NCBI GenBank assembly: GCA_029933705.1
Contig: JAOZNQ010000001.1
Location: 1 to 54,992 of the forward strand
Direction of reading: 5' to 3'
Source of the DNA: a bacterium
GTDB taxonomy: Bacteria > Hydrothermota > Tepidihabitantia > SM23-42
DNA length: 54,992 bases
Each line of letters starts with the position of its first letter. The stretch's first letter is position 1. Positions 992 to 52,535 of the stretch are shown here, piece after piece. The translations under genes and the position numbers were made by a program. The notes beneath the pieces were generated by a model. It worked only from the letters and a program-made list of their open reading frames with translations. It searched no databases and had not been told where the DNA came from.

Positions 992-1671
992 TTATAGTCC
1001 CGCGGACCGAATATTGCAGTTCCCACCCTTATCAAATTTGAACCCTCTTCAATAGCCACCTCAAAATCCGATGTCATCCCCATTGAGAGTATCGGAAATG
1101 GTTGATCGAATGCCCGGGCGAGTTCATCGCGGAGTTCACGCAGGAGCCGAAAACAGGACCTTGATGCCTCTGGGTCCTGAATTGCCCAGCCTGGACCGAT
1201 AGTCATCAATCCGACAATATTTAACTGCTTAAAGGGATGCAGGGCTTCGTAGAATTGAATCAGTTCATTGGGTTTGATACCGAATTTTGAAGGCTCCTGA
1301 GAGGTGTTGACCTCGATAAGGCAATCGATCGGTTTTTCGGCCCGACGGTCAATCTCTCGGGCAAGCCTTATTGAATCGAGACTATGAATCATCCTGAAGA
1401 TCTTCAGGGCATCCTTAACCTTATTGGTCTGTAAATGTCCGACCATATGCCACTCAACCACATTCCCCAGGCGCACAAACTTCTGCTTTGCCTCCTGAAC
1501 GCGGTTTTCGCCGATTATCCGGATGCCTGACTCAACCGCCTCAAGAATTTTCTCCACAGGGAAGGTCTTGGCAACTGCCACTATGGTAATCTCATCCGGG
1601 GTGCGTCCTACTCGAGCTGCAGCCTCGGCAACCCTCTTATTCAATGCCTCAATATTTTCTCTTATTGACAT
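973..1671 (-). CDS. yggS: YggS-family pyridoxal-phosphate homeostasis protein (PLPBP)
   Basis: 232 aa. VAVAKTFP (PLP lysine context), HMVGHLQTNKVK and SMGMTSDFEVAIEEGSNLIRVGTAIFG are typical of the YggS/PROSC family. Confidence 0.9.
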   Translation of the reverse strand: MSIRENIEALNKRVAEAAARVGRTPDEITIVAVAKTFPVEKILEAVESGIRIIGENRVQEAKQKFVRLGNVVEWHMVGHLQTNKVKDALKIFRMIHSLDSIRLAREIDRRAEKPIDCLIEVNTSQEPSKFGIKPNELIQFYEALHPFKQLNIVGLMTIGPGWAIQDPEASRSCFRLLRELRDELARAFDQPFPILSMGMTSDFEVAIEEGSNLIRVGTAIFGPRDYKCLNRT

Positions 1672-1677
1672 AGCCCA

Positions 1678-1705
1678 ATTATACGAATTTACGGCATTAT
1701 GTCAA
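1678..1705 (-). promoter_or_regulatory. Sigma70-type promoter for yggS, leaderless geometry
   Basis: Minus strand reads TTGACA (1705-1700), a 16-nt spacer, TATAAT (1683-1678), 6 nt (tgggct), then ATG at 1671. Confidence 0.7.
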
Positions 1706-1725
1706 TTGTGGTGCCTGATGGAGTG

Positions 1726-2862
1726 TTAATCATTATCATTAAACTTGAATCGGGCGATGGTGAAGTTTCCTGAATATGCATTGGAGATTTTTTCAAAGGT
1801 CGGTTCATGGAAGAGGGTGTGGATGACTATGTCATCCTGGTCCAGAAATTTATTACCATTATCAAATGCAAGAATTGCGGCATGCCTCGACCACAGGACA
1901 ATGTTACCGGGAATGACCGCCTCATTGTTGTTACCGTCGAATTTAATCCGTGCACCGTTTTTTATATAAAAACCTTTATTATCAATACTGTCCGGGCTTG
2001 CGATTATATTTGCATAATGGAGCAGTGATTGACTGCCGGTATAGGGCATATCATAACCCGCCTTTCTGAAAATCCCGACCACAAAGTCGGCACAGTCCGC
2101 ACCGATATACTTCTCTGTCTGATGTTCACAGGGCCGGCCTGTCCTACTGGCGCTTCCCCAGATAAAAGGAAGGTTGAAGAATGAATATGCCCAGTCGATG
2201 ATTTTATTACCGGTATTTCCCCGAACACTGATACGATGGGCATCAATATCACCATCCTTTTTAACCGATTCTGCTCCGGGTGAAGAAATCATCTGGTTAT
2301 TGAACTTCACCTCCACTTTATACCGCATTGTGCCGAAAGGATGCGAGTCCAATTCCACCGGAATAACATCAGCTTTGATAATCCAGGTATTCGAACTATC
2401 CCAGACAAACTCTTTATAATTGAGCTTATCCCAGTGCCATATCTTTTTAAGAATACCATCTTTTTCAACCCAGTCTTCATTGCTATAGTATCTAAAACCG
2501 GTCTTCTTGTTGCCACGCACCGGCTCTACCTTATACCATAGAATCTTTATCTGTTCTAATCCGAAATCCTCAGGTGCTTCGGTCACAATCTCTTTGCCAC
2601 CTATTATCACCATTTCCCAGGGCGAGATAAAGAACTTCTTATTGTCCTTTTCGAACTCGACGACCAGACCGAGGAACGCCTCTTCGCTATCCAATACCGG
2701 ATATTTGGGTTGACTCGAGGGGACCCCTGAATCTACCTGACAATTGACCGGAAAGACCCTGGATACGATATATACCCTTTCAATCGATTGACCACTGAGG
2801 TGCGTAAGGAACACGCCAAATAGTATTCCGGGCAATAGTTTAGAGAACTTTTTTCTGTCCAT
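1726..2862 (-). CDS. Secreted protein with C-terminal NlpC/P60-like cysteine peptidase domain
   Basis: Cys motif GADCADFVVGIFRKAGY, His motif VLWSRHAAILAF, and a third polar residue in IVIHTLF. I moved the start to ATG 2862 (MDRKKFSKLLPGILFGVFLTHLSG, a signal peptide) because a promoter sits inside the 22-codon extension called in the ORF track (1726..2928). Confidence 0.6.
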   Translation of the reverse strand: MDRKKFSKLLPGILFGVFLTHLSGQSIERVYIVSRVFPVNCQVDSGVPSSQPKYPVLDSEEAFLGLVVEFEKDNKKFFISPWEMVIIGGKEIVTEAPEDFGLEQIKILWYKVEPVRGNKKTGFRYYSNEDWVEKDGILKKIWHWDKLNYKEFVWDSSNTWIIKADVIPVELDSHPFGTMRYKVEVKFNNQMISSPGAESVKKDGDIDAHRISVRGNTGNKIIDWAYSFFNLPFIWGSASRTGRPCEHQTEKYIGADCADFVVGIFRKAGYDMPYTGSQSLLHYANIIASPDSIDNKGFYIKNGARIKFDGNNNEAVIPGNIVLWSRHAAILAFDNGNKFLDQDDIVIHTLFHEPTFEKISNAYSGNFTIARFKFNDND

Positions 2863-2867
2863 TTTCA

Positions 2868-2895
2868 ATATTACATCAGTTTTTGTAAAAATCAA
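2868..2895 (-). promoter_or_regulatory. Sigma70-type promoter for the NlpC/P60-like gene, leaderless geometry
   Basis: Minus strand reads TTGATT (2895-2890), a 16-nt spacer, TAATAT (2873-2868), 5 nt (tgaaa), then ATG at 2862. Confidence 0.6.
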
Positions 2896-2924
2896 GAACC
2901 GATATAGATTAAAGTATGAAGTTT

Positions 2925-4495: not shown

Positions 4496-5443
4496 TCAGG
4501 GCAATTCCATAAGGCAATTGAACAGCAGAAGGAGGCGATTCGGATTCTGCTCCAGGATATTTATTGCCTGATTCAACATAATCAGTGTATTGACAATCTT
4601 CTTTACAGAAAGCCGCCGGGCCTTTTTTACTATATCTTTTGGAAAAGGTACATCGTCAACCAGTTTTAATTTTTTATATAGAGTAATTCGATAGAGGAGG
4701 AGCAGGGGATAGAATAGGTCGAGGATATTTTTTCGCTCAAAGTTCCGGGCAATGGATGCTGATTTCCTTGGCATCAGGGGTGCGGCACGGAAGATTTCGA
4801 TTACCGGTTCAATAAGTTCTTTCTCACGCAGGCGTAAAATTTCACCCGGGCTACCCAGGAGATATTCATCATGTCCATCATAGATAATTTTCTCAATATC
4901 ATCAGGCCGGAGATAACCGAAGGGAAGAATCTGACACCGGGAACGTATTGTGGGAAGCAGAAAGTTCACACGCGACGAAGTAAGAATAAAGATTGTATCA
5001 ACCGGTGGTTCTTCCAGGGTCTTCAGAAACGAGTTTGCTGCGGCATCGGTCATCCTGTCGGCCTCAAGGATTAATACTACCCTTTTGGTCCCTTTTCCAG
5101 GCATATGGAGGAGCCTTTCAATCACCCGCCTTATCTGTTCAATATGGATTGAGGAACGTTCTTCGAGTTCAACCAGAGGATTGGTTGGTAGATACTGATT
5201 TAAATACTCTTCCAGTTTTTTACCTTTTTCTTTGAGTTTTGAAGGGATCGGGGCAACAAGGATAAAGTTCTGGGAATTATATGGGCAACCCAAGGCTCGG
5301 GCAAGGGCAAATGCGAACCGTCTCTTTCCTACACCCTTAGGCCCGACTAAGAGTAGGTTATAAAGATTTCCTTTATGCAGGGCAGTGGTAACAAACTGTT
5401 TTATTGATGACTGGTTGATAATCTCAGAAAAGTAATCTGCCAT
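4496..5443 (-). CDS. holB: DNA polymerase III subunit delta-prime (clamp-loader AAA+)
   Basis: 315 aa. LLLVGPKGVGKRRFAFALARAL (P-loop), TLEEPP, and TIRSRCQ (SRC motif). Confidence 0.8.
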   Translation of the reverse strand: MADYFSEIINQSSIKQFVTTALHKGNLYNLLLVGPKGVGKRRFAFALARALGCPYNSQNFILVAPIPSKLKEKGKKLEEYLNQYLPTNPLVELEERSSIHIEQIRRVIERLLHMPGKGTKRVVLILEADRMTDAAANSFLKTLEEPPVDTIFILTSSRVNFLLPTIRSRCQILPFGYLRPDDIEKIIYDGHDEYLLGSPGEILRLREKELIEPVIEIFRAAPLMPRKSASIARNFERKNILDLFYPLLLLYRITLYKKLKLVDDVPFPKDIVKKARRLSVKKIVNTLIMLNQAINILEQNPNRLLLLFNCLMELP

Positions 5444-5451
5444 CCGTTATT

Positions 5452-5479
5452 ATTATAATGGAAAATTGCTGATGGTCAA
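5452..5479 (-). promoter_or_regulatory. Sigma70-type promoter for holB, leaderless geometry; overlaps the hflX stop codon
   Basis: Minus strand reads TTGACC (5479-5474), a 16-nt spacer, TATAAT (5457-5452), 8 nt (aataacgg), then ATG at 5443. Confidence 0.65.
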
Positions 5480-7818: not shown

Positions 7819-8768
7819 TAAATTTTTAATTTTGTGTAGTCAAAAAATTTCAGGGTCTTCAGGGCAAAACGGTAATCATTCAGGGCCTTCTTGGCGATTA
7901 CCGCACTTTCCTTGCCCAGGAATGTAGCGAATGATTCATAGATGATATCAAACCAGCGTGCCATACCCTGGGCAAAGCTTAGGGGCTCGACCACAACCTT
8001 GCCGCTGACTTCCAGCTCTGAATTTATTTTGAAATTTTCGATGAAAGGAAATTCTTTCTGGGCGGTGGAACGGGCACTCACTGCGGTCCTCAGAACCAAA
8101 CTCTTACCTAGGGGATGGGCATACTTTTTCAGAAGGTTCGAAAATATTTTGCAGAACATCTCCACCTGAGCCGGGGTAGCCTGCTTTACCTCGACCTCTT
8201 CACCTCGATCAAAGATTGAGATTGTCAGATTGGGCCGCATCAGGAACGGAATAATCTCTTTTTCCGAAAGTTTTTTACTCGCACCCGCAACATAACACCC
8301 GGTTATCTCTCCCTGCTCAAAATTGATGAACGATTCCTCCATCCCCGAGACAACCCATATAAATCCATCAAACTTGGTGCTTTTTAACTTGTCGATAAAT
8401 ATTTTCGGTTGAACACGGGAAAGGTCAAGGTTTGCCTTTATTGGCTTTCTTGTGATCGAGGCAATAATCATCTGGAGTAAACCTTCGTCTGTGGCGTATT
8501 CAGAAAGGATTCCACTTGTTGCATTCTTTGCCTTTTCAATCACCTCACTGATGGAGACGATCTCCCTTTTATTTACTGAAATCCGGGCTGCATTGAACGG
8601 TTCGCCCTGCCTCAAGAAGATGAGTTCCTGAACATCGGGATAGATAATCGAAATATACCCTGAAATCCGGTGTGCCCTTTCCCTTTTTGAGGCACTGAGC
8701 ACATTGTCAAGATTGATAAATTCCAATCTGGTATTTTCCAGAATCGGCCTTCCCTTAGGAAACTTCAT
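7818..8768 (-). CDS. Hypothetical cytoplasmic protein with an internally duplicated small module
   Basis: 316 aa with no motif I can assign. Two similar segments, [28 protein letters not shown] and [29 protein letters not shown], suggest a tandem domain duplication. Its stop overlaps the rsmI start (TAATG). Confidence 0.5.
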
Positions 8769-8774
8769 TAGGCT

Positions 8775-8803
8775 ATATTATCATAAAAATTTAGAAAAGT
8801 CAA
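8775..8803 (-). promoter_or_regulatory. Sigma70-type promoter for the 316-aa hypothetical gene (head of the operon reaching at least to hflX), leaderless geometry
   Basis: Minus strand reads TTGACT (8803-8798), a 17-nt spacer, TAATAT (8780-8775), 6 nt (agccta), then ATG at 8768. Confidence 0.6.
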
Positions 8804-8862
8804 GCAAAAAAATCTCAACTTTTCTTCCCCTTTTTGAAAGATTGGTATATTTCGTTCAAACC

Positions 8863-8890
8863 TTGACTTTATTGTTGATTTATATAAAAT
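8863..8890 (+). promoter_or_regulatory. Sigma70-type promoter for the 431-aa TPR/coiled-coil gene
   Basis: TTGACT (8863-8868), a 16-nt spacer, TAAAAT (8885-8890). The in-frame TTG at 8895 lies 4 nt downstream and the in-frame ATG at 8907 lies 16 nt downstream. Confidence 0.55.
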
Positions 8891-8894
8891 AGTC

Positions 8895-10190
8895 TTGAGA
8901 CGAAAAATGATTTTTAAAAGAAAAGAGAATAATGTCAGCAAGTTGATTAAAGAGATCAACGAGCTGGAATTGAGGGGAAAGATAAAGGAAGCGGTGCAGA
9001 AGCTGGAAAAAGCTATTACCTTAAGTCCGAACGAAGGTAGTTTTTACAACCGTTTAGGAGACTTTCATATTAAACTCAATGATACGACCTCGGCTATCGA
9101 GGCATATAAAAAGGGCATAAGTGTTTTCCGCGAAAATGGCTATTACCGCAATGCCCTGGGCCTCTGTAAGAAAATTCTAAGGTATGCGCCGGGGAATATC
9201 GAAATATACTGGACTACCGCAGAGCTGTTGATTGAACTTGATGAGAAGACAGATGCGCTGATGTATCTATTCGAATATGCGGAGAAGCAACTGGTACAGA
9301 AGAATGAAAAAGAGGTCCTGCGCACAATCGATTATATCAAGAATATGGAGATCAGGAATGATAAAGTTGAGGCCAAGATAAATGAACTTTATAAGGCATT
9401 GGGAAGGAAAGAATTTATTAAAGAGACGGTAAGGCCACAACCTCCGGAGAAGAGGCCGAGCCGACCAGAGGCTGAGAAGGTCAGTAAAGTTGAGGTAAAA
9501 CCCGCAGCCAGAAAGCCGACTGTAGAATCTCTTGATTTTGAGAAAAGGTTAAAGGATGACCTTGCTCGATTGGACGAGGTAATAAAAGGGGTCGATTCAG
9601 CCATTGCTGAATTGAGAAAGGCCTTGCGTCTTGATGAAGTGATTGTTGCCCTTGATAAATCGTTGTCTTCACTTTCTGATGGACATAAGAAGGCAATCGG
9701 ACTTTTACAGAAGTCAATCAGTTTGAATCTTGATACACTTCAGAAGTCGATCCGCGAGCTGTCTCAGGGTTCGGAAAAGAATATTAAAGGACTGGAGGCG
9801 CTCTTAAATAGTCTGAGTAAATCGTTGACCAATATGGGGAAAAATCAGGCGGCCTTCAGTCAGGAGATACATAAAAACCTATTGAGGGTAGGTGACAGTT
9901 TTAATAAAACAACAGAGGTGGCCGTGAAAAAGGTTGAAGAGTTTTTGAAGGACTATCAGAGGATAAGTAGAGATATGTGTGAACGGCTTACTGAGACCAA
10001 AGACTGCAATGTCTCATTGGTCAAGGTCGTAGAAGGGATGAAGGTTGACCTCCAGGCAATGAATGATGCCCTGGTGAAGTTTGTAATGTCTCAGGAGTCG
10101 AAGGCAAAGACCCTGGGCCGTTTTGGATTAATCATAATAATTATTGGTGCCGTAATCTGTGGTATTCTACTGATCTCACTTTTTAAATAA
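8895..10190 (+). CDS. Tail-anchored membrane protein: N-terminal TPR repeats, Pro/Lys-rich linker, long segmented coiled coil, C-terminal TM helix
   Basis: 431 aa. TPR-like region (GSFYNRLGDFHIKLNDTTSAIEAYKKGISVF...). Linker RPQPPEKRPSRPEAEKVSKVEVKPAARKP. Heptad-rich middle section. C-terminal LGRFGLIIIIIGAVICGILLISLFK. The start may be ATG 8907 rather than TTG 8895. Confidence 0.5.
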   Translation: MRRKMIFKRKENNVSKLIKEINELELRGKIKEAVQKLEKAITLSPNEGSFYNRLGDFHIKLNDTTSAIEAYKKGISVFRENGYYRNALGLCKKILRYAPGNIEIYWTTAELLIELDEKTDALMYLFEYAEKQLVQKNEKEVLRTIDYIKNMEIRNDKVEAKINELYKALGRKEFIKETVRPQPPEKRPSRPEAEKVSKVEVKPAARKPTVESLDFEKRLKDDLARLDEVIKGVDSAIAELRKALRLDEVIVALDKSLSSLSDGHKKAIGLLQKSISLNLDTLQKSIRELSQGSEKNIKGLEALLNSLSKSLTNMGKNQAAFSQEIHKNLLRVGDSFNKTTEVAVKKVEEFLKDYQRISRDMCERLTETKDCNVSLVKVVEGMKVDLQAMNDALVKFVMSQESKAKTLGRFGLIIIIIGAVICGILLISLFK

Positions 10191-10221: not shown

Positions 10222-11338
10222 TTAGAGATTCGCCTTTGCTTCCTTACGCAGGTAGTTATATATAAAATCATCAATGTGGCCGTCCATCACTTTATCGATC
10301 TGGGTGGTTTCATAGTTGGTCCGATGATCCTTCACAAGTTTGTAAGGGTGGAAAATGTAGGAACGGATCTGATGGCCCCAGGCAATCTCGGTCTTCTTCT
10401 CATCCAGTTTCTTTATCTTTTCCTCTTCTATTTTTTTCTTGTAATAATCATAGAGTCGGGATCTTAAAACCTTCATCGCATTGACCTTATTCTGATACTG
10501 AGAACGTTCATTCTGGCATTGAACCGTAATTCCGGTAGGGAGATGTGTGATTCTGACTGCAGAGGAGACTTTATTTACATTCTGACCTCCATGACCTCCT
10601 GCACGGAATGTATCAATCTTTAAATCCTTCTCATCAATTTCGAAGTTTATTGCTTCAATTTCAGGATAGACAAATACTGAGGCGAATGAGGTGTGGCGTC
10701 GCGCATTGGAGTCGAACGGTGATATACGGACAAGACGATGGATTCCCACCTCGGCCTTTAACAGACCATAGGCGTAGTCACCAATCACTTCGATAGTCGC
10801 ATCCTTAATTCCCGCAATCTCGCCGGGCAGGAGATTGAGAATTCGATAGGAGAAATTTTTCAACTGTATCCATTTCAGATACATCCGAAAGAGTATCTCA
10901 GCCCAATCACAGGATTCTGTCCCGCCTGCCCCAGGATGGATTGTAAGAATGCAGTTTTTGATATCATCTTCCTGGCCCAGGAGTAATTTTAGCTCGAGGG
11001 AGTTAATCTGATTCTCAACGCGCTTTATCTCGGCGTGGGCTTCTTTCTTCAGTTTCGGGTCCAGCTCAGGCAAGGAGACTATCTCATCGAGGAGGTCAAT
11101 ATCCTGGGCGGTCTTGGTTATCGCATCGAACCAGGTCTGTTTCCGGTTTAACTCCTCCATTATCTTTTGAGCCTTAGCCCGATCATTCCAGAAATCGGTT
11201 GCGGTTGTTTTCTTCTGGAGTTTTTCTAAATCCTTTTTGAGCTCCTCAAGGTCAAAGATGCTCCTTTAATTTAGTGAACCTCTCCCTCAGTTTTTTCACC
11301 TTTTCAAGGGTGATATCTTCTACTGACGGCCTATTCAA
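10222..11338 (-). CDS. prfB: Peptide chain release factor 2, expressed through a programmed +1 ribosomal frameshift
   Basis: The track ORF 10222..11160 carries SPF (ISPFDS) and GGQ ([11 protein letters not shown]). Upstream, frame 0 runs from TTG 11338 for 26 codons ([28 protein letters not shown]) to CTT TGA at 11257-11252. Shifting +1 gives GAC CTT GAG..., which reads [41 protein letters not shown] and runs in frame into the track ORF. Confidence 0.9.
11251..11265 (-). promoter_or_regulatory. prfB +1 frameshift cassette: internal SD-like AGGAG, 3-nt spacer, CTT TGA C
   Basis: Minus strand reads AAAGGAGCATCTTTGACC. This is the same architecture as the E. coli prfB site (SD-like element, 3 nt, CUU UGA C). 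Confidence 0.85.
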
Positions 11339-12967: not shown

Positions 12968-12995
12968 ATTATAATTAAAATTTATGATTTGTCAA
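12968..12995 (-). promoter_or_regulatory. Consensus sigma70 promoter for the rho-rpmE-prfB operon, followed by a leader of about 120 nt
   Basis: Minus strand reads TTGACA (12995-12990), a 16-nt spacer (aatcataaattttaat), then TATAAT (12973-12968). Confidence 0.7.
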
Positions 12996-13011: not shown

Positions 13012-13929
13012 TCAGTCACTAATCACAGATTTGGTGAGGATGAAACGGATTGGGTCAACCGGCCGGTTGGCAATATGAACCTCATAATGGAGATGGGGGC
13101 CGGTAGATTTACCGGTATTGCCGACATAGGCGATGATATCACCTCTTTTTACCTTCATCCCGGGAATTACCTTGATTCGCTGACAATGGGCGAACAGGGT
13201 GCTGTATCCATAACCGTGGTCGAGCTCAACGGTGAGTCCAAAACCGCGTTTTGTACCGGTATATTTTACCACACCATCAGCAGGCGCAACGATTGGGGTT
13301 CCTATTGGTGCAGCGATATCAAGACCTTCATGCATCTTTACCTTGCCGGTAAAGGGGTCGATATGATAGCCGAAACCCCGGATCAACCATCCCTGGACCG
13401 GGATGATAGATGGTGTATGATTTTGCATATATCGTTTTTCCTCAAGGTAGTTGTAGAGTTCATTAAAGCTCTTCTGCTGAACCCTTGCCTGAGCAAGGAT
13501 ATTATCAAGGGTCTGGGAAATATCGGTGAGTTTATCCTTTATCCTGGGGGATATTTCTTTGTCATTGTAATGCGGGGTATAACCACCGACCCCTGCCTTT
13601 CTCAAATCTTCATTGATCGGTGTAAGAGGGGCATAGACCCTCAATTTCTTGTCGTAGAGTGCAAGGCTATCAATTATATTATTCAGGTTGGCTATCTCAT
13701 TTTCAATCCGCATCAACTCCTGGTGAACTATTTGATTCTCGGTCCTCAGTTTCCTCAGTCGATTCTGGTCGACTTCGTTGGTCGCAAAGAATACAACACT
13801 GTAGATAAAGAAACCTAAAATTCCCAGTATGAACATTCCTAACAGAAGAATAAAGATAAATTTTATGTGTAGATTTAAGGTCTTATTGCCCCGGCTGCTA
13901 ACAAGAATTATGTCCAATAAACTCTCCAA
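13012..13929 (-). CDS. M23-family peptidoglycan DD-metalloendopeptidase (TM anchor, coiled coil, LytM domain)
   Basis: HEGLDIAAPIGTPIVAPADG and GNTGKSTGPHLHYEV. The track start (13974) lies upstream of a strong promoter embedded in the ORF. The first in-frame start after it is TTG 13929; ATG 13836 (MFILGILGFF) is an alternative. Confidence 0.85.
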   Translation of the reverse strand: MESLLDIILVSSRGNKTLNLHIKFIFILLLGMFILGILGFFIYSVVFFATNEVDQNRLRKLRTENQIVHQELMRIENEIANLNNIIDSLALYDKKLRVYAPLTPINEDLRKAGVGGYTPHYNDKEISPRIKDKLTDISQTLDNILAQARVQQKSFNELYNYLEEKRYMQNHTPSIIPVQGWLIRGFGYHIDPFTGKVKMHEGLDIAAPIGTPIVAPADGVVKYTGTKRGFGLTVELDHGYGYSTLFAHCQRIKVIPGMKVKRGDIIAYVGNTGKSTGPHLHYEVHIANRPVDPIRFILTKSVISD

Positions 13930-13933
13930 CCAT

Positions 13934-13961
13934 ATTATATAGACAATTAAAAAAAAGTCAA
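13934..13961 (-). promoter_or_regulatory. Sigma70-type promoter for the M23 peptidase gene, inside the track-called N-terminal extension
   Basis: Minus strand reads TTGACT (13961-13956), a 16-nt spacer, TATAAT (13939-13934). The in-frame TTG at 13929 lies 4 nt downstream. Confidence 0.6.
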
Positions 13962-14014
13962 GGGTTTTCTGCATCCAGAACAGAGATTAATTTGAAGTAT
14001 CAAAAAATGGATTG

Positions 14015-14042
14015 TTGACAAGTTAATGATACTAAGTATAAT
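14015..14042 (+). promoter_or_regulatory. Consensus sigma70 promoter for the class II RNR gene, near-leaderless
   Basis: TTGACA (14015-14020), a 16-nt spacer, TATAAT (14037-14042), 9 nt, then GTG at 14052. The palindrome ATACTAAGTAT (14029-14039) overlaps the -10 box. Confidence 0.7.
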
Positions 14043-14051
14043 CTTATTGTT

Positions 14052-16088
14052 GTGAATAAGGTCATTAAACGAGATGGTTCCGAAGAGAATTTTGATCCGA
14101 ACCGAATTTATAATGCCATCAGAAAGGCCCTTAAGGCAAGTCAAGAGGACATCTCCCTTGCTGAAACAATCGGAAATGAGGTTATAGCAGAGTTAGAAAA
14201 GGAACCTGAATCATTCAAACCGCATGTTGAAGATATCCAGGACCTCATTGAGAAGACATTGGTGCGTCATGGTAAGTATGCAACCGCAAAGGCTTATATT
14301 ATTTATCGCCGGAATAGAACCGAACTCAGGGAGAAGAAGACCATCCTTGGAGTAAAGGATGATCTCAAGTTATCATTTAACAGCCTTAAGATACTTGAGG
14401 AACGTTATCTGAGGCGTGACCCTGCAGGAAGGGTGATTGAGTCTCCTGAGCAACTGTTCAAACGAGTAGCAAAGGCAATTGCAGAGGTCGACGCCAATTA
14501 TGGTGCCCGTCCTGAGGAGACTGAAGAGAAGTTCTACAACAGTATGGTCAATTTGGAATTTTTGCCCAATTCACCTACCTTGATGAATGCAGGGACCGAG
14601 ATAGGTCAATTATCAGCCTGTTTTGTTCTGCCGATTGAGGATTCATTGAAGAGCATATTTGATACCTTGAAAAACGCGGCATTGATTCATCAGTCCGGTG
14701 GTGGGACCGGTTTTTCATTCTCCCAGATTCGACCCCGGGGCGATGTTGTGAAGTCGACTATGGGTATCGCTTCTGGGCCTATATCATTTATGAGGATCTT
14801 CGACCGTGCCACTGAAATCATAAAGCAAGGGGGACGGAGACGCGGTGCGAATATGGGGGTTCTGCATGTGACCCATCCTGATATTGTAGATTTTATCCGG
14901 CTCAAAGAGAAGGAAACCGAATTTGTTAACTTCAATATCTCAGTGGCGGTTTCAGACAATTTCATTAAACGGGCGATCAATAATCAGGTATATGAACTCA
15001 TAAACCCTAGAAATAAGAAGGTGGTGAAGATGCTGAATGCCCGTGATGTCTTCGATTTGATAATCACCAATGCCTGGAAGACAGGAGATCCCGGGATGCT
15101 CTATCTTGATGAGATAAATCGCAGAAATCCCACACCCGGACTCGGCTCAATCGAGACAACAAATCCCTGCGGTGAGGTCCCTTTGCTTCCCTATGAATCC
15201 TGCAATCTCGGTTCAATAAATCTTGTTCAGATGTTCAACGCAGGCAAATTTGATTATAATAAACTGGCTCGTACGATTGAGGTGGGGGTTCATTTCCTGG
15301 ATAATGTCATTGATGCCAATCGATATATTATTAAAGAGATTGAAGATATCACCAGGGGCAATCGAAAGATCGGTCTGGGGATAATGGGGTTTGCCGATTG
15401 TTTGATTAAGATGAACATCCCTTATGATTCCCAGGAGGCGCTCGACTTTGCTGGAGAATTGATGAATTTTATTCAGAATAAGGCACGGGAAGCATCACAG
15501 GCCCTGGCAGAAAAGCGCGGTTCATTTCCCAATATTCAACATTCAATCTTTAAAGATAAAAAGATGCGGAATGCCACAGTGACATCCATCGCCCCCACGG
15601 GAACAATCAGCACCATCGCGAATGTCTCTTCCGGGATTGAACCGCTATTTTCGGTTGGATATCTGAGGAATGCATTGGATACGACCCTTTTGACGGTTAA
15701 TCCACTGTTTGAAGAGACCGCCCGGGAGCGGGGTTTCTATTCAGCGGAGATGATTGCTGAGGTTGTGCGCACCGGCTCGGTTCGACGGATACCCCAAATA
15801 CCCGATAATATCAAGCGCATATTTCCGGTTGCCCATGATATTCCACCTGAATTCCATATTAAGATGCAGGCGACATTCCAGCGTTATGTGGATAATGCAG
15901 TGAGTAAGACCATAAATCTTCCAGAGAATGCTACCCTGGAACAGACCCGGATGGTTTTTCTACTCGCCCACAAGCTCAAATGTAAAGGGGTTACCATATA
16001 TCGATACGGAAGTAAGAAGAGGCAGGCGTTAGAATTTGGAGAGATTAACAACTATAGGGTCTGTGGTGAAGGAATCTGTAATTTTTAA
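14052..16088 (+). CDS. nrdJ: Adenosylcobalamin-dependent (class II) ribonucleotide reductase with N-terminal ATP-cone
   Basis: 678 aa. ATP-cone VIKRDGSEENFDPNRIYNAIRKA. Active-site TNPCGEVPL. C-terminal Cys pair VCGEGIC. Monomeric class II length. Confidence 0.9.
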   Translation: MNKVIKRDGSEENFDPNRIYNAIRKALKASQEDISLAETIGNEVIAELEKEPESFKPHVEDIQDLIEKTLVRHGKYATAKAYIIYRRNRTELREKKTILGVKDDLKLSFNSLKILEERYLRRDPAGRVIESPEQLFKRVAKAIAEVDANYGARPEETEEKFYNSMVNLEFLPNSPTLMNAGTEIGQLSACFVLPIEDSLKSIFDTLKNAALIHQSGGGTGFSFSQIRPRGDVVKSTMGIASGPISFMRIFDRATEIIKQGGRRRGANMGVLHVTHPDIVDFIRLKEKETEFVNFNISVAVSDNFIKRAINNQVYELINPRNKKVVKMLNARDVFDLIITNAWKTGDPGMLYLDEINRRNPTPGLGSIETTNPCGEVPLLPYESCNLGSINLVQMFNAGKFDYNKLARTIEVGVHFLDNVIDANRYIIKEIEDITRGNRKIGLGIMGFADCLIKMNIPYDSQEALDFAGELMNFIQNKAREASQALAEKRGSFPNIQHSIFKDKKMRNATVTSIAPTGTISTIANVSSGIEPLFSVGYLRNALDTTLLTVNPLFEETARERGFYSAEMIAEVVRTGSVRRIPQIPDNIKRIFPVAHDIPPEFHIKMQATFQRYVDNAVSKTINLPENATLEQTRMVFLLAHKLKCKGVTIYRYGSKKRQALEFGEINNYRVCGEGICNF

Positions 16089-23135: not shown

Positions 23136-23163
23136 ATTATAACAAAATTTTTCAATTTGTCAA
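23136..23163 (-). promoter_or_regulatory. Consensus sigma70 promoter for the giant subtilase-like gene (leader of about 85 nt with SD)
   Basis: Minus strand reads TTGACA (23163-23158), a 16-nt spacer (aattgaaaaattttgt), then TATAAT (23141-23136). Confidence 0.7.
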
Positions 23164-29188: not shown

Positions 29189-29206
29189 CAAAAACCTCCA
29201 CATTTT

Positions 29207-29234
29207 AGTATAATAAAAATATGGTAAATGTCAA
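29207..29234 (-). promoter_or_regulatory. Sigma70-type promoter for the PorV-like gene and downstream gatCAB
   Basis: Minus strand reads TTGACA (29234-29229), a 16-nt spacer, TATACT (29212-29207). ATG 29203 lies 3 nt downstream. ATG 29188, with GGAGG, lies 18 nt downstream. Confidence 0.65.
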
Positions 29235-33088: not shown

Positions 33089-33096
33089 ATGGTAAA

Positions 33097-33124
33097 AGTA
33101 TATATATAATTTACTAAAAATCAA
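33097..33124 (-). promoter_or_regulatory. Sigma70-type promoter for the GWxTD-TPR gene set, leaderless geometry
   Basis: Minus strand reads TTGATT (33124-33119), a 16-nt spacer, TATACT (33102-33097), 8 nt (tttaccat), then ATG at 33088. Confidence 0.6.
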
Positions 33125-33161
33125 TAATGGTAAACAGATCCGATATTCTGAACTTAAGTAT

Positions 33162-33189
33162 TTGACAATCAAAAAATCAGGATTATAAT
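33162..33189 (+). promoter_or_regulatory. Consensus sigma70 promoter for the phosphohexomutase gene, leaderless geometry
   Basis: TTGACA (33162-33167), a 16-nt spacer, TATAAT (33184-33189), 5 nt (cggat), then ATG at 33195. Confidence 0.75.
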
Positions 33190-33194
33190 CGGAT

Positions 33195-34556: not shown

Positions 34557-34584
34557 TTGACTTTTCATTGTTATTGGATAGAAT
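34557..34584 (+). promoter_or_regulatory. Sigma70-type promoter for purA, leaderless geometry
   Basis: TTGACT (34557-34562), a 16-nt spacer, TAGAAT (34579-34584), 6 nt (ttgagt), then ATG at 34591. Confidence 0.65.
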
Positions 34585-34590
34585 TTGAGT

Positions 34591-35838
34591 ATGAATATTG
34601 CAGTGGTTGGTTTACAATGGGGTGATGAGGGTAAAGGCAAGGTGGTTGATTACCTGGCAAAAGATTTTGATATTGATGTTCGGTTTCAGGGTGGTGCCAA
34701 CGCCGGACATACAGTTCGGGTCGGTGATGAAAAAGTTGTCTTTCATCAAATCCCCTGCGGTGTCTTACATAAGAATATAACCGGTGTTATCGGTGCGGGA
34801 TGTGTGTTTGATCCCTCAATATTTTTTGAAGAATTGTCCACACTTAAAAAATATGATTCCAGGATTGAGGATCGTATCAAGGTCTCGAAATTTTCCCATT
34901 TGGTAATGCCCTACCATATCATTATCGATCGAATAAGGGAAGAGACCAAGCAGGGTATCGGCACGACAAAGAAGGGTATCGGGGTTGCCTATGAGGATAA
35001 GTATGGACGGATCGGCTTGAGGGTGGGTGACCTCTTTGACCCGGAACAGTTTGAGGGGAGATTGAAGCGGAACCTTTCCCGTAAAAATCTACTTCTTATG
35101 GAAATCTATCGAGCCGAACCTCTGTCGGATGATGAAATACTGGAAAGGTTTCGGGAATATGCAGAGCGTTTGAAGCCGATGGTGGTTGATGATACAGAAT
35201 TCCTTGGCAGGGCGATTGCAGAAAAGAAGAGTATAATATTTGAAGGTGCACAAGGCGCACTCCTCGATATCAATTTTGGTACCTATCCCTATGTTACCTC
35301 TTCCCATACCATTGCTGGAGGTGCCAGTATCGGTCTTGGTCTGGGACCGTTGTCCATTGATAAGGTTATCGGGGTGGTGAAGGCCTATACAACCCGGGTC
35401 GGACTGGGTCCGTTTCCATCTGAGGATAAGGACCAACTTGGTGAAGGTCTGAGAAGGGTGGGAAAAGAGTTTGGGGCAACTACGGGCAGACCCCGGCGCT
35501 GCGGTCCGTTCGATGCCGCAGTGGTTCGCTATGCAGCCCGATTGAGTGGAGTAAAAGAGATATTTTTAACCAAGCTTGATGTGCTTTCAGAGCTTGATAA
35601 AATTAAAATCGGCGTGGGTTATGAGAATAGCAAAGAATTTGATCCATTCATTGCTGAGCAACTATGCCCGATTTATGAGGAGCTCCCTGGCTTCAAGAAG
35701 GATATTTCCGGGATCAGAGATTTTAATAATCTGCCCGAGTCGGCAAAGGAGTATGTTAAATTAATCGAACATTATACCGGACTACGGGTGGGTTATATCT
35801 CGGTTGGTCCTGAGCGGAATGCAGTGATTGAAAAGTAA
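34591..35838 (+). CDS. purA: Adenylosuccinate synthetase
   Basis: MNIAVVGLQWGDEGKGK, GTTKKGIG and GATTGRPRRCG. The track start TTG 34585 abuts the -10 box, so ATG 34591 is preferred. Confidence 0.95.
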   Translation: MNIAVVGLQWGDEGKGKVVDYLAKDFDIDVRFQGGANAGHTVRVGDEKVVFHQIPCGVLHKNITGVIGAGCVFDPSIFFEELSTLKKYDSRIEDRIKVSKFSHLVMPYHIIIDRIREETKQGIGTTKKGIGVAYEDKYGRIGLRVGDLFDPEQFEGRLKRNLSRKNLLLMEIYRAEPLSDDEILERFREYAERLKPMVVDDTEFLGRAIAEKKSIIFEGAQGALLDINFGTYPYVTSSHTIAGGASIGLGLGPLSIDKVIGVVKAYTTRVGLGPFPSEDKDQLGEGLRRVGKEFGATTGRPRRCGPFDAAVVRYAARLSGVKEIFLTKLDVLSELDKIKIGVGYENSKEFDPFIAEQLCPIYEELPGFKKDISGIRDFNNLPESAKEYVKLIEHYTGLRVGYISVGPERNAVIEK

Positions 35839-35899: not shown

Positions 35900-35927
35900 T
35901 TGATTTTTTTAGAATTATGTATATTAT
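35900..35927 (+). promoter_or_regulatory. Sigma70-type promoter for alr, leaderless geometry
   Basis: TTGATT (35900-35905), a 16-nt spacer, TATTAT (35922-35927), 7 nt, then ATG at 35935. Confidence 0.55.
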
Positions 35928-35934
35928 TATTTTA

Positions 35935-37104
35935 ATGAACCGTTCTGAAGGAAGGGTCTGGGCTGAGATTTATTTAGACCGACTTATCAAGAATTACTAT
36001 CAGATCAAAAAGAAAGTAGGTAAGGCACGGATAATGGCGGCGATTAAGGCCGATGCCTATGGGCATGGGGCAAGGGAGGTCGGCCGCACCCTCGAGGCCG
36101 AAGGTATTGAGATGTTTGGTGTGGCAAGCATTGAGGAAGGAGTTGAATTACGAGAGGGAGGTATCCAGACCCCGATTCTTATTCTGAGTCCGATTCTCTA
36201 TTCCCAGATTGATACACTACTTGAATATGACCTGATGCCTACAATATCTGAATTGAGTTTTTATAACCACCTGGAACGAAAGTTGAGGAAACTGAGGCGG
36301 CCGATAAAGATCCATATCGAGGTGGATACCGGTATGACACGGACCGGTTTTTCCTATAACAAAATCAAGCAGGCGATTCATAAAATCGGGAAATCCCGTT
36401 TTATCAAAATTGAAGGTTTCTTCTCCCATTTTCCGGTTGCGGATGCAGATGGCTCTTTCACCAAGAAACAGATTGAGGATTTTAAGGGATTGTTGAAGCA
36501 GATGCATAACCTACGGGTTCGACCCCGGTATGTGCATCTGGCCAACTCAGCGGGAATCTTTAAATATCCCAGGGCCTATTTTAATCTCGTGCGTCCAGGA
36601 ATTGCCCTCTATGGTTTACGTCCCAGTCCTTCTATCGATTTTGGTAAGAATTTTGCCCCGGTTCTTGCATTGAAATCAAGGGTGGTGAATGTTCGTCAGG
36701 TTGGTCCACAAACTCCAATCAGTTATGGCCATCGTTTTATTACCAAGAGGCGGAGTCGGATTGCTACAGTAAGTGTGGGATATGGTGATGGTTATCCCAG
36801 GGTTTTATCCAATCGGGGTGAGGTACTCATCCGGGGTACACGGGCAAGGATTGTAGGAACTGTATGTATGGATTTGATTATGATCGATGTTACCCATATT
36901 CATGGGGTGAGGGTTGGGGATATTGTTACCCTGATTGGCCAGGACGGTAAGGATGAGATCAGCGCTGAAGAATGTGCCCGATGGGCGAATACCATAGTCT
37001 ACGAAATTACTTCAGGAATTGGTCCCCGGGTTGCAAGGGTTTACAAGATAAAGGGGCGCACGATTGAAATCAGAAATTTACTGGGAAGGTGGCGAAATGC
37101 TTGA
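35935..37104 (+). CDS. alr: Alanine racemase
   Basis: AAIKADAYGHG (PLP lysine), SHFPVAD and VSVGYGDGYPR. The start is moved from 35878 to ATG 35935 (MNRSEGRVWAEI). Confidence 0.9.
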   Translation: MNRSEGRVWAEIYLDRLIKNYYQIKKKVGKARIMAAIKADAYGHGAREVGRTLEAEGIEMFGVASIEEGVELREGGIQTPILILSPILYSQIDTLLEYDLMPTISELSFYNHLERKLRKLRRPIKIHIEVDTGMTRTGFSYNKIKQAIHKIGKSRFIKIEGFFSHFPVADADGSFTKKQIEDFKGLLKQMHNLRVRPRYVHLANSAGIFKYPRAYFNLVRPGIALYGLRPSPSIDFGKNFAPVLALKSRVVNVRQVGPQTPISYGHRFITKRRSRIATVSVGYGDGYPRVLSNRGEVLIRGTRARIVGTVCMDLIMIDVTHIHGVRVGDIVTLIGQDGKDEISAEECARWANTIVYEITSGIGPRVARVYKIKGRTIEIRNLLGRWRNA

Positions 37105-47109: not shown

Positions 47110-47415
47110 TCAGCTTTTTGTTCTCGTGTGTTCGACTAATTTCTCAAGGAACATACATATTCGGGAGATTGTATTATCCTTTATGCGGTAGAGTTTATCT
47201 CTGCCTCTTGTTTCATATCGAACCAGGTCAATATTTCTCAGTAGCCTGAGGGTTGATGAGATTGTGGTGAGATCAATACCCAGGGCACGGGATAGCTCTC
47301 CAGGGGTGTGCTCCTTCTTAAGCAATAATTTTATGATTTGATAGGCAGTGGGATTTCCCAAAACCCGGCACATTCTTGAGGCCCGATAGTCTGTTTCATA
47401 CATTCTTTTCCGCAT
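47110..47415 (-). CDS. ArsR/SmtB-family winged-helix transcriptional regulator
   Basis: 101 aa. CRVLGNPTAYQIIKLLLKKEHTPGELSRALGIDLTTISSTLRLLRNIDLVRYETRGRDKLYRI. Confidence 0.8.
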   Translation of the reverse strand: MRKRMYETDYRASRMCRVLGNPTAYQIIKLLLKKEHTPGELSRALGIDLTTISSTLRLLRNIDLVRYETRGRDKLYRIKDNTISRICMFLEKLVEHTRTKS

Positions 47416-47420
47416 AGATT

Positions 47421-47445
47421 ATTATAGATATCTTCAATTTGTCAA
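47421..47445 (-). promoter_or_regulatory. Putative arsR promoter with leaderless geometry but an atypically short spacer
   Basis: Minus strand reads TTGACA (47445-47440), a spacer of only 13 nt, TATAAT (47426-47421), 5 nt (aatct), then ATG at 47415. Confidence 0.4.
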
Positions 47446-47466
47446 TTGTCCAATTGTCGTATTGAC
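47434..47466. repeat. Three to four direct repeats of (T)CAATTG / AATTGTC at 7-8 bp phasing; candidate operator
   Basis: Plus strand reads tCAATTTG tCAATTG tcCAATTG tcgtATTGAC. CAATTG is itself palindromic. Confidence 0.6.
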
Positions 47467-50166: not shown

Positions 50167-51490
50167 CTTTCTCCTTTCTTTTATTCAAGGCCTTCTTTAT
50201 CAAATTTTCGAGTTTTGGCCCGGAGCGCTGTTTTAGTTCATAGGTAACCTTAACTCCGGGTTTGTTTAAAACGAGGAATTTCCTCAAATCCACTGGTGTC
50301 GCAATGATGATTGAATCGGCTGGGGTTCGGTTGATGCTCCTCTGGAGTTCCCGGATCTGTCTTGCACCATAGCCAAGTGCTGGGAGGAGTCGACCGATCT
50401 GGGGATATCGCTCAAAGGCTTTTTTAATAGAACCGACCGCATAAGGTCTTGGATCGATGATCCTGCGTGCCTTAAATTTACGGGCAGCGACGATTCCTGC
50501 TCCAAATGACATCTCGCCGTGGGTAAGGGTTGGTCCATCCTCGACCACAACTACCCTTTTATTTCTTATCAATTCAGGTTGATCCACTGAGGTGGGTGAT
50601 GCTGCCTCAATAATCACGGCTTTTGGGTTGAGTGACCTCACATTTGCCTTTAATTTATTAATATTTTTTTTCGGGGCAGTATCCACTTTATTGATTATTA
50701 TAATATCCGCCATACGAATATTCGCCTCACCGGGATGATAGGTATCTTCATTGCCGGTGCGGAACGGGTCGACCACAACAATGTGGAGGTCTGGTTTGTA
50801 AAACGGCAGGTCATTATTTCCACCATCCCAGACAATGACATCAGAGATTCTTTCCGCCCTTTTGAGGATCAGTCCATAATCGACTCCGGCAAAGACCGTG
50901 GTTCCCTGTTTTATATGCGGTTCATACTCTTCCCGTTCTTCAATGGTGCATTTATGCCGGTCCAGATCCCGCAGTGTGGAAAATTTCTGAACAATCTGCT
51001 TTTTTAAATCACCATAGGGCATCGGATGGCGGATGACAGAAAATCTTATCTTAAGTTTATTCAATATTTCACAGACCCGCCGGGTAGTTTGACTCTTGCC
51101 AGAGCCGGTTCTCACTGCGCAGATTGAGATTACCGGTCGTCTCGACTTCAGCATCGATGATTGAGGTCCCAGGAGCCAGAAATCCGCGCCCGCGGCAATT
51201 GCGATTGATGCCCTATGCATTACATAATTGTGGGAGATATCAGAATATGCAAATACAACGATATCAACCTTAAATTTTTTTATCAACTCACTCAATTTTG
51301 ATTCTGGAAATATCGGGATGCCCCGGGGGTATCTTTTCCCGGCCAATTCCCTGGGATATTTTCGGTCTTCAATATTTGGTATCTGGGTAGCAGTAAAACA
51401 GACGACCTTAAATTCTGGGTTGTTTCTGAAAAAGAGATTAAAGTTATGAAAATCCCTGCCTGCCGCACCCATAATGATAACCCGACGCAT
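50159..51490 (-). CDS. COG2403-type P-loop protein related to cyclic 2,3-diphosphoglycerate synthetase
   Basis: MRRVIIMGAAGRDFHNFN, Walker A AVRTGSGKSQTT, Walker B-like VIVWDGGNND, and NKVD. The start is taken as ATG 51490, behind AAAGGAGG; the track start is TTG 51508. The stop overlaps the ppdK start by 8 nt. Confidence 0.6.
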   Translation of the reverse strand: MRRVIIMGAAGRDFHNFNLFFRNNPEFKVVCFTATQIPNIEDRKYPRELAGKRYPRGIPIFPESKLSELIKKFKVDIVVFAYSDISHNYVMHRASIAIAAGADFWLLGPQSSMLKSRRPVISICAVRTGSGKSQTTRRVCEILNKLKIRFSVIRHPMPYGDLKKQIVQKFSTLRDLDRHKCTIEEREEYEPHIKQGTTVFAGVDYGLILKRAERISDVIVWDGGNNDLPFYKPDLHIVVVDPFRTGNEDTYHPGEANIRMADIIIINKVDTAPKKNINKLKANVRSLNPKAVIIEAASPTSVDQPELIRNKRVVVVEDGPTLTHGEMSFGAGIVAARKFKARRIIDPRPYAVGSIKKAFERYPQIGRLLPALGYGARQIRELQRSINRTPADSIIIATPVDLRKFLVLNKPGVKVTYELKQRSGPKLENLIKKALNKRKEKDG

Positions 51491-51514
51491 AAAAAAACCT
51501 CCTTTCAAGGTGCT

Positions 51515-51543
51515 ATTATAGGCTAAAAATTGATAAAAGTCAA
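51515..51543 (-). promoter_or_regulatory. Sigma70-type promoter for the COG2403-ppdK operon (leadered, with SD)
   Basis: Minus strand reads TTGACT (51543-51538), a 17-nt spacer, then TATAAT (51520-51515). Confidence 0.6.
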
Positions 51544-51614
51544 TGATTATATATGACCTGAGTCCATTATTTATAATGGTTTCCCTGATATTATGTCATT
51601 TATTCAATTTAATC

Positions 51615-51642
51615 TTGTAATCGTTCATAATATTCATATAAT
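51615..51642 (+). promoter_or_regulatory. Sigma70-type promoter for the EamA transporter gene, leaderless geometry
   Basis: TTGTAA (51615-51620), a 16-nt spacer, TATAAT (51637-51642), 5 nt (taccg), then GTG at 51648. Confidence 0.55.
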
Positions 51643-51647
51643 TACCG

Positions 51648-52535
51648 GTGGTTGATTATCAGGGTGAACTTTTTTCTTTAATGAGTGCGGTATTATGGGC
51701 CCTGGCGGTAATCTTTTTCAGAAAGAGTGGTGAACGGGTTCATCCCCTGGCATTAAACTCTTTCAAAAACTTTTTTGCCTTTATCTTATTGATCCCGACC
51801 ATTTATATATTTAATGAATCGTTGTTGATGCGTGTTCCAGTCCGATATTATCTGATCCCGATTTTGAGTGGAGTGATTGGTATCGGTATCGGTGATACAC
51901 TCTTCCTTTCGAGCCTCAATTTTCTTGGTGCGGGATTGACATCAATCGTGGTATGTATGTACAGCCCTTTTGTCATAGCCCTTTCTATATTATTTCTCGA
52001 CGAACATCTTCTCCCCACACAGATTGTCGGTGCGGTGCTTATCATTCTGGCAATCCTCATCGCCTCTTTGAAGAAAAAAGGAGAGGGCACAAGACCAAAG
52101 CGTTTATGGCTGGGCATATTCCTTGGCGTCCTCGCATCGGTCGCAATGGCCAGCGGGATTGTGATTGTAAAACCCCTCCTTTTGTCATTACCGCTTTTGT
52201 GGGTTACCGAGATCAGGTTATTGGGTGGTATCATTGTCCTTGCTGTAATCCTCGGTTTGATACCTGATCGGGTTAGGGTTGTTAATTCTCTCATCAAAAC
52301 GAAGAGCTGGACCTATTCTATCACCGGCGCCCTGATCGGTGCATATCTGGCAATGGTTGTCTGGCTTGCCGGGATGAAATATACCCAGGCATCTATCGCC
52401 TCGGTGCTGAATCAGACGAGCACAATCTTTGTATTTATATTCGCAGGAATTATCCTGAAGGAACCGATCAGTTTGAGGCGGATTCTGGGTATAGTACTCG
52501 CCTTTATCGGTTCACTCCTGGTGATTCTGAAATAA
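51648..52535 (+). CDS. EamA/DMT-family transporter
   Basis: 295 aa, about 10 TM in two EamA-like halves. Confidence 0.8.
   Translation: MVDYQGELFSLMSAVLWALAVIFFRKSGERVHPLALNSFKNFFAFILLIPTIYIFNESLLMRVPVRYYLIPILSGVIGIGIGDTLFLSSLNFLGAGLTSIVVCMYSPFVIALSILFLDEHLLPTQIVGAVLIILAILIASLKKKGEGTRPKRLWLGIFLGVLASVAMASGIVIVKPLLLSLPLLWVTEIRLLGGIIVLAVILGLIPDRVRVVNSLIKTKSWTYSITGALIGAYLAMVVWLAGMKYTQASIASVLNQTSTIFVFIFAGIILKEPISLRRILGIVLAFIGSLLVILK

Follow-up and report, generated by a model that had tools for sequence, protein, structure and literature searches.

A leaderless-type organisation has been predicted in 1028 of 4769 bacterial species (~22%) and is common in Actinobacteria and Deinococcus-Thermus (PMC6028130). 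In group C of the GeneMarkS-2 classification, the Pribnow box locates 6–8 nt from the gene start and 25–50% of the operons are affected, and 90% of the analysed genomes of the Fibrobacteres-Chlorobi-Bacteroidetes (FCB) group affiliate with group B, in which mRNAs are leadered and translation does not use Shine-Dalgarno (SD) elements (PMC6028130). Zheng et al. 2011 defined TA-led leaderless genes by a TA-like signal near the start, and a leaderless signal was present in only one of 37 Bacteroidetes/Chlorobi genomes (PMC3160421). Here we analysed the promoters and start codons of first-in-operon (leading) genes in a stretch of 54,992 nt (contig JAOZNQ010000001.1, GenBank assembly GCA_029933705.1; hereafter the window) from candidate division WOR-3. 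A sequence-only reading of the window had proposed that such genes are transcribed into leaderless or near-leaderless mRNAs from near-consensus sigma-70 promoters with a fixed 16-nt spacer (N16), over a range that runs from the last base of the yggS start codon (1669) to that of the EamA start codon (51650). Our analysis points the same way, both in the window and in its WOR-3 relatives.

The host of the window is candidate division WOR-3 bacterium 4484_100, as identified by an exact-sequence match (YggS = OPX17745.1; the NrdJ cluster includes OPX18327.1). The same locus is also present on an ENA contig of 70 kb as well as on several further metagenomic contigs, and the GC content of the window is ~44%. 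All 17 promoter-like elements that had been placed upstream of genes were relocated (Table 1). Their spacer is N16 in 15 of the 17, not in 14 as counted before, and N17 in the other two, which belong to COG2403 and to a gene for a protein of 316 amino acids (aa), hyp316. A mismatch-tolerant scan recovered exactly the five perfect TTGACA-N16-TATAAT sites named in the sequence-only reading, located at yggS, rho, nrdJ, a giant S8 subtilase gene and a glmM-like phosphohexomutase gene. A start codon 5–9 nt past the -10 hexamer is well supported for ten genes, eight with ATG and two with GTG. The two GTG starts, of EamA and nrdJ, are those previously reported, and eight of the nine ATGs assigned to a distance of 5–8 nt stand as well (yggS, holB, hyp316, GWxTD-1, phosphohexomutase, purA, alr and a gene formerly labelled 'NlpC/P60', here hyp378); the ninth, arsR, reaches its 5 nt only with a 13-nt spacer (N13). 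At operon-internal genes, AAGGAG-type SD elements and stop/start overlaps were found as described.

AT-rich intergenic DNA could by composition alone yield TATAAT- and TTGACA-like strings beside start codons. The weak elements of alr, hyp378 and GWxTD-1, which carry three to four mismatches, would fit such an origin, and so would a generic 9-of-12 promoter scan, in which the window was only mildly enriched over shuffles (50 matches vs 37 ± 7), although that scan is too permissive to reveal the signal. Stringent matches, in contrast, exceeded 100 dinucleotide-preserving shuffles of the window 17- to 250-fold. Five perfect N16 sites compare with a shuffle mean of 0.02, and nine N16 sites with at most one mismatch compare with a mean of 0.52 (maximum 3). 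N16 sites with at most two mismatches and an ATG or GTG 2–9 nt past the -10 that opens an open reading frame (ORF) of at least 80 codons numbered eight, against a mean of 0.02.

The geometry is conserved among relatives, which were collected as orthologous neighbourhoods of ~0.7 Mb in all. A first set of 43 loci (~515 kb) was obtained from a metagenome scan with an alignment of hyp316. A second set of eight loci, found by a homolog search with the phosphohexomutase, represents diverse WOR-3 genomes (GC 36–49%, 52–71% protein identity to the query), most of them non-syntenic with the window. Protein hyp316 has 112 homologs, nearly all of 316–317 aa, and where a source is named it is mostly WOR-3. 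In almost all loci its gene is preceded by TTGACT/A, a spacer of 16–17 nt, TAATAT/TATAAT and a gap of 5–7 nt to the ATG (GTG in four loci); the sequence of the spacer drifts across loci, whereas the distance from promoter to start is kept. This geometry was retained in 31 of 33 orthologs of hyp316, in 14 of 14 orthologs of holB and in 8 of 8 orthologs of the phosphohexomutase gene, all of them leading genes, but in only 0–11% of the members of each operon-internal family (rsmI, 0/31; CDP-alcohol transferase, 3/28; hflX, 1/27; SpoIID, 1/13; Mut7-C, 1/12). In the holB orthologs, TTGACC-N16-TATAAT has its -35 within the hflX 3' end, and the gap to the start is 5 or 8 nt (5 nt in 11/14); the start codon is GTG in 12/14 and otherwise ATG. 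The phosphohexomutase orthologs have TTGACA-N16/17-TATAAT/TATACT and an in-frame ATG 5–6 nt downstream. Synteny around the latter gene is largely broken between genomes, and the promoter-to-start geometry is nonetheless kept; transposases of the IS110 family adjoin the gene in two WOR-3 genomes (loci L130 and L133, Table 1).

Independent gene calls gave the same result. With the public calls for eight WOR-3 genomes, the geometry was present at 23 of 76 leading genes but at only 2 of 65 internal genes (Fisher p = 1.3e-5), and these leading genes belong to unrelated families, including purN, fabG, folK, polA, S26 peptidase and YkuD. In the window, in the 43 metagenomic loci and in the eight loci with independent gene calls alike, the gap distribution peaks at 5–6 nt (range 3–9). 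The sequence-only reading had suggested comparisons with internal genes and with shuffled sequence as a check; in the neighbourhood loci the geometry was far rarer at internal than at leading genes, and in the window it was far above shuffled sequence. On these comparisons, the promoter-to-start geometry is evidently under selection. The trait has limits within the hyp316-bearing lineages. Locus L116, whose hyp316 homolog is 46% identical, has retained N16 together with short gaps, while locus L119 (36% identity, 60% GC) has N17–18 promoters with leaders, and no N16 or leaderless geometry was observed in the GC-rich distant loci L119, L125 and L126. The trait is hence not common to every lineage with a hyp316 homolog. 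The scope 'T9SS-bearing lineages' (T9SS, type IX secretion system) of the sequence-only reading is too broad, although the phrase is apt for the source of the window, which carries T9SS genes.

Other phyla were represented by 80 loci from a purA-based genome scan (45–50% identity), which were reused as Firmicutes, Proteobacteria, Actinobacteria and Acidobacteria controls. With ORF-based gene calls, a full -35/-10 promoter ending 3–9 nt from the start was found at 35% of the leading genes in WOR-3, at 6% in Firmicutes loci of equal GC, at 5% in Proteobacteria and at 0% in both Acidobacteria and Ignavibacteriales/Bacteroidota (WOR-3 vs controls in the same pipeline, p = 2e-10). The promoter signal of Firmicutes has its enrichment further away, 30–36 nt upstream of the start. 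Scrambled hexamers of the same composition gave 4%, against 34% with the real motif; reversed hexamers (ACAGTT/TAATAT) gave 11%, an imperfect control as TAATAT also functions as a -10 in this lineage. Actinobacteria, considered as a positive control, were unusable, since they scored 0% with the full -35/-10 criterion and longest-ORF calling is unreliable at 64% GC. Because of the shuffles and these controls, to which the sharply peaked spacer and the geometry kept in orthologs can be added, an origin by chance or composition is excluded and we assign it practically no weight.

Viewed from the promoters instead of the genes, 106 non-identical near-consensus N16 sites were located upstream of 43 gene families. 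The start codon follows at 3–9 nt in 17 of the families, at 10–30 nt, i.e. behind a minimal SD leader, in 9, and further downstream in 16. The columns of the promoter alignment themselves spell ATG from 5 nt past the -10, and of 56 leaderless-type start codons, 48 have a purine as their first base (ATG 39, GTG 9). The consensus of the 106 sites, cTTGACa ... TATAAT, corresponds to sigma-70 (RpoD) hexamers. Its -35 TTGACA and -10 TATAAT are identical to those of canonical E. coli/Bacillus sigma-70 (sigma-A) promoters, whereas the WOR-3 optimum is 16 bp instead of 17, within the sigma-70 range of 17 ± 1. Scanning WOR-3 with at most one mismatch gave 106 sites with N16, 11 with N17, and between 3 and 18 at each other spacing from 12 to 22; an identical analysis of Firmicutes peaked at N17 (17 sites vs 4 with N16; p = 4e-11). 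The 'fixed 16-nt spacer' is therefore a genuine property of the lineage and not an accident of the window.

If the promoters are real but the true starts lie further downstream, behind short SD leaders, the adjacency would be an artefact of start annotation. Two genes of the window conform to this explanation. One codes for a PorV/PorQ-family protein and carries GGAGG and a second ATG, which opens a signal peptide and from which the ortholog in locus L129 is called (336 aa); it is better read as having a minimal SD leader, with its start at this second ATG. The other is COG2403, with AAAGGAGG upstream of an ATG 24 nt past the -10. They are no isolated cases, as a class with the -10 located 16–26 nt before the ATG exists across the WOR-3 loci, where an AAGGAGG-type SD fills nearly the whole predicted 5' untranslated region of 10–20 nt. 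The statement that only three promoters are followed by real leaders thus stands for the long leaders of rho and the subtilase, but the leader of COG2403-ppdK, like that of the PorV-like gene, is of the minimal kind.

For six of the ten leaderless-type genes, however, a downstream start finds no room. In yggS, holB, nrdJ, phosphohexomutase, purA and EamA, only 2–11 residues separate the proposed N-terminus from the first Pfam domain (Ala_racemase_N from residue 7 in YggS, an ATP-cone domain from residue 3 in NrdJ, PGM_PMM_I from residue 4 in the phosphohexomutase, EamA from residue 6, Adenylsucc_synt from the N-terminus in PurA), and in all six no other start codon lies between the upstream in-frame stop and the proposed start. 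Within an alignment of 17 hyp316 homologs, M1, P4 and G6 are invariant. Orthologs of holB and the phosphohexomutase gene keep the N-terminal peptide directly after the promoter, and no SD motif occurs between these promoters and the start codons of leaderless-type genes. Public gene catalogues agree on the start for eight of the ten products looked up, including YggS (232 aa). By these comparisons, wrong start annotation does not account for the leaderless-type genes, and a downstream start is very unlikely as a general explanation. A displacement in the opposite direction was seen in L130, where a perfect TTGACA-N16-TATAAT is followed after 6 nt by an in-frame ATG but the public phosphohexomutase call begins 9 nt beyond this codon, probably a mis-call by a gene finder without a leaderless model.

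Alternatively, the start-adjacent promoters could be secondary or internal, with the main expression coming from longer transcripts whose leaders are translated independently of SD, e.g. by an S1/A-rich mode as in Bacteroidota. The promoters of holB, yggS and hyp378 locate within 32–62 nt of, or overlap, an upstream co-directional stop codon, and Bacteroidota, which are FCB relatives, do translate SD-less leadered mRNAs (group B; PMC6028130). Yet four of the promoter pairs (hyp316/TPR427, GWxTD-1/phosphohexomutase, COG2403/EamA and M23/nrdJ) are divergent and back-to-back and hence allow no upstream transcript; the genome, unlike those of Bacteroidota, uses a canonical AAGGAGG SD at internal and leadered genes; and the near-consensus hexamers argue for strong primary promoters. 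Transcription from further upstream as the main source of these mRNAs is accordingly judged unlikely, if less so than displaced starts. Together, the alternatives cover at most a minority of the cases.

The leaderless reading is supported by a geometry that is non-random, conserved, tied to bounded starts and without counterpart in the controls; from its motif, spacing, position, conservation and specificity we infer the position of the transcription start site (TSS) and the mode of translation. An RpoD/sigma-70-type holoenzyme would recognise -35 TTGACA and -10 TATAAT at an optimal spacing of 16 bp, with the -10 ending 5–9 nt (mode 5–6) before the ATG or GTG in roughly 30–40% of the transcription units. 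RNA polymerase would in this way begin at the start-codon purine or 1–3 nt ahead of it, producing a leaderless or near-leaderless mRNA with no room for an SD element, and translation would proceed by direct recognition of the 5'-terminal start codon through the 70S/IF2-fMet-tRNA route of other bacteria. A second large class would have minimal leaders of ~10–20 nt holding just an AAGGAGG-type SD, fewer genes such as rho and the subtilase would have long leaders, and operon-internal genes would rely on SD elements or overlapping stop/start codons. That WOR-3 housekeeping promoters with N16 set leaderless or near-leaderless mRNAs for ~30–40% of the transcription units is, in our judgement, probable.

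Several points weigh against this reading. It places the TSS by an assumed E. coli-type geometry, and at the modal gap of 5 nt transcription has to begin at the sixth base past the -10, one base nearer than is most common in E. coli. Where the gap is 8–9 nt (holB, nrdJ and GWxTD-1), the mRNAs may carry leaders of 1–3 nt instead of being truly leaderless. Since the promoters of holB, yggS and hyp378 lie in or just past the 3' end of a co-directional gene, read-through polycistronic transcripts may coexist. The share of 30–40% is a rough estimate, resting on the ~0.7 Mb of neighbourhoods and not on whole genomes. Lastly, three of the 17 elements, those of arsR, TPR427 and M23, are ambiguous and fit poorly.

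Table 1 Promoters, start codons and associated features in the window and, where indicated, in related loci. Gaps are counted from the end of the -10 hexamer
Feature	Position	Strand	Element or observation	Remark
yggS promoter and start	1669..1705	-	TTGACA-N16-TATAAT-6 nt-ATG	leaderless-type; perfect site 1705..1678
hyp378 weak promoter and start	2860..2895	-	TTGATT-N16-TAATAT-5 nt-ATG	start ATG 2862
holB promoter and start	5441..5479	-	TTGACC-N16-TATAAT-8 nt-ATG	-35 overlaps hflX stop codon
hyp316 gene	7818-8768	-		
hyp316 promoter and start	8766..8803	-	TTGACT-N17-TAATAT-6 nt-ATG	
TPR427 promoter	8863..8909	+	TTGACT-N16-TAAAAT; TTG at 4 nt (8895), ATG at 16 nt (8907)	ambiguous
hyp316/TPR427 divergent pair	8775-8890			
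ORF without prfB N-terminus	10222..11160			
prfB frameshift site	11257..11251	-	CTT TGA C	site region 11251-11336; ORF0 start TTG 11336
rho promoter	12968..12995	-	TTGACA-N16-TATAAT	perfect consensus; leader ~120 nt
M23 peptidase promoter	13927..13961	-	TTGACT-N16-TATAAT; in-frame TTG at 4 nt (13929)	inside maximal ORF; start uncertain
M23/nrdJ divergent pair	13934-14042			
nrdJ promoter and start	14015..14054	+	TTGACA-N16-TATAAT-9 nt-GTG	near-leaderless; perfect site 14015..14042
Giant S8 subtilase promoter	23136..23163	-	TTGACA-N16-TATAAT	perfect consensus; leader ~85-90 nt to ATG near 23043
PorV/PorQ-family gene	29186..29234	-	TTGACA-N16-TATACT; first ATG at 3 nt, second ATG at 18 nt, GGAGG between them	second ATG 29188
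GWxTD-1 promoter and start	33086..33124	-	TTGATT-N16-TATACT-8 nt-ATG	start 33088; divergent from phosphohexomutase promoter
GWxTD-1/phosphohexomutase divergent pair	33097-33189			
Phosphohexomutase (glmM-like) promoter and start	33162..33197	+	TTGACA-N16-TATAAT-5 nt-ATG	perfect site 33162..33189
purA promoter and start	34557..34593	+	TTGACT-N16-TAGAAT-6 nt-ATG	
alr weak promoter and start	35900..35937	+	TTGATT-N16-TATTAT-7 nt-ATG	start 35935, not 35878
arsR	47413..47445	-	TTGACA-N16-AATAAT-2 nt-ATG or TTGACA-N13-TATAAT-5 nt-ATG	ambiguous
arsR direct repeats	47440-47465	-	ACAATTG-g-ACAATTG-ACAAATTG	overlap the -35
COG2403-ppdK operon promoter	51488..51543	-	TTGACT-N17-TATAAT	minimal leader
COG2403/EamA divergent pair	51515-51642			
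EamA promoter and start	51615..51650	+	TTGTAA-N16-TATAAT-5 nt-GTG	
Phosphohexomutase start, locus L130	9985-10003		in-frame ATG 6 nt past perfect TTGACA-N16-TATAAT	
IS110-family transposase, locus L130	5599-6816			adjoins phosphohexomutase locus
IS110-family transposase, locus L133	6731-7780			adjoins phosphohexomutase locus

Both TPR427 and M23 have an in-frame TTG exactly 4 nt past the -10, and no further candidate start before 16 nt. For TPR427, the public call of 427 aa begins at the ATG, and its ambiguous promoter is compatible both with leaderless initiation at the TTG and with a leader of very few nucleotides; the two promoters may give very short SD-less leaders. The -35 of arsR is overlapped by direct repeats that are probably an autoregulatory operator, and the misfit of this gene to the rule of N16 and a 5–6-nt gap may be due to the overlapping repeats. 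Its 101-aa product has no entry in the public gene collection searched. The orthologs of nrdJ and purA in L129 show the same and an identical geometry, respectively. The -10 of the phosphohexomutase promoter lies in the palindrome ATTATAAT, so that TATAAT is read on both strands, and the -35 boxes of the four divergent pairs are 37–71 nt apart. The start of the subtilase gene is preceded by AAAGGAGAAGG. Rfam and tRNA scans of the window gave no match, hence no known riboswitch or leader RNA in the leaders of rho and the subtilase.

Pfam and NCBIfam scans agree with nearly all gene names given before. The exception is 'NlpC/P60': the product, hyp378, has no match in either collection, its ATG opens a signal peptide (MDRKKFSKLLPGILFGVFL...) and the public calls likewise give 378 aa, so that the label is replaced by a signal-peptide protein without family match. 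The highly conserved hyp316 has no Pfam or NCBIfam match either; in most fetched loci (L086–L128) it is followed by rsmI, CDP-alcohol phosphatidyltransferase and hflX. The T9SS-type content of the window comprises the PorV/PorQ-family protein, T9SS C-terminal sorting domains, one of them in the S8 subtilase (2014 aa), and two GWxTD proteins. On the minus strand, prfB (release factor 2) contains the classical programmed +1 frameshift site with an SD-like AAGGAG 3 nt upstream, because of which the long ORF at this position lacks the PrfB N-terminus. The gene rpmE (L31) is located between rho and prfB.

Among the described systems, group C, as represented by Mycobacterium tuberculosis, Streptomyces and Deinococcus deserti, is the closest: there too the -10 lies a few nt upstream of first-in-operon starts, and both AUG and GUG serve as leaderless starts (PMC6028130). 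The geometry seen here is the very one from which leaderless transcription was deduced in silico for group C and for TA-led genes (PMC6028130, PMC3160421). The share of operons is likewise in the group C range (35% with ORF-based calls, 30% with public calls and 17 of 43 families, all within the neighbourhoods), and the remaining and internal genes are SD-led, with the geometry as rare at internal genes as given above. WOR-3 differs in three respects. It lies in the FCB-related radiation, its modal gap is 5–6 nt compared with the 6–8 nt reported for M. tuberculosis, and a strong near-consensus -35 TTGACA stands beside the -10, whereas actinobacterial leaderless promoters mostly show only TANNNT. 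With Bacteroidota (sigma-ABfr, -33/-7; group B) it shares the wider FCB/T9SS-bearing radiation. In contrast to the layout of that phylum, in which -33 TTTG and -7 TAnnTTTG combine with the lack of SD at any gene, WOR-3 has an E. coli-like consensus and an AAGGAGG SD at internal and leadered genes.

Within the collection of papers searched, none joined WOR-3 with leaderless mRNAs, and a search on promoter and SD themes gave none that mentions WOR-3. For WOR-3 the layout thus appears to be undescribed, although it is well known from other bacteria. What is new is the lineage, together with the modestly unusual combination of near-consensus promoters, a 16-bp optimum and a 5–6-nt discriminator. 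The novelty claimed in the sequence-only reading holds for the lineage and is otherwise more modest than implied, as ~22% of bacterial species are predicted to be leaderless-type. The finding reveals no new mechanism.

Its practical consequence is that gene starts in WOR-3 metagenome-assembled genomes should be predicted with a leaderless-aware model, since calls shift when promoters are left out of account, as seen for the L130 phosphohexomutase, PorV, alr, GWxTD and M23. The finding also widens the known taxonomic distribution of leaderless-type gene starts to an uncultured lineage related to phyla that had been regarded as nearly free of them, and it provides an unusually clean set of near-consensus promoters, whose 16-bp optimum leads to a prediction about the geometry of sigma region 3–4. 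We lean only slightly towards the wider proposition of a compact promoter-to-start architecture throughout the phylum, in which a holoenzyme with a 16-bp optimum would initiate 6 nt past the -10 and at least a third of the operons would give leaderless AUG/GUG mRNAs, including those of the essential holB, purA, glmM-like and nrdJ genes. If true, the FCB-related radiation would have in WOR-3 its first lineage of the group C type, with either an independent gain or an ancestral retention of leaderless initiation beside a fully functional SD system.

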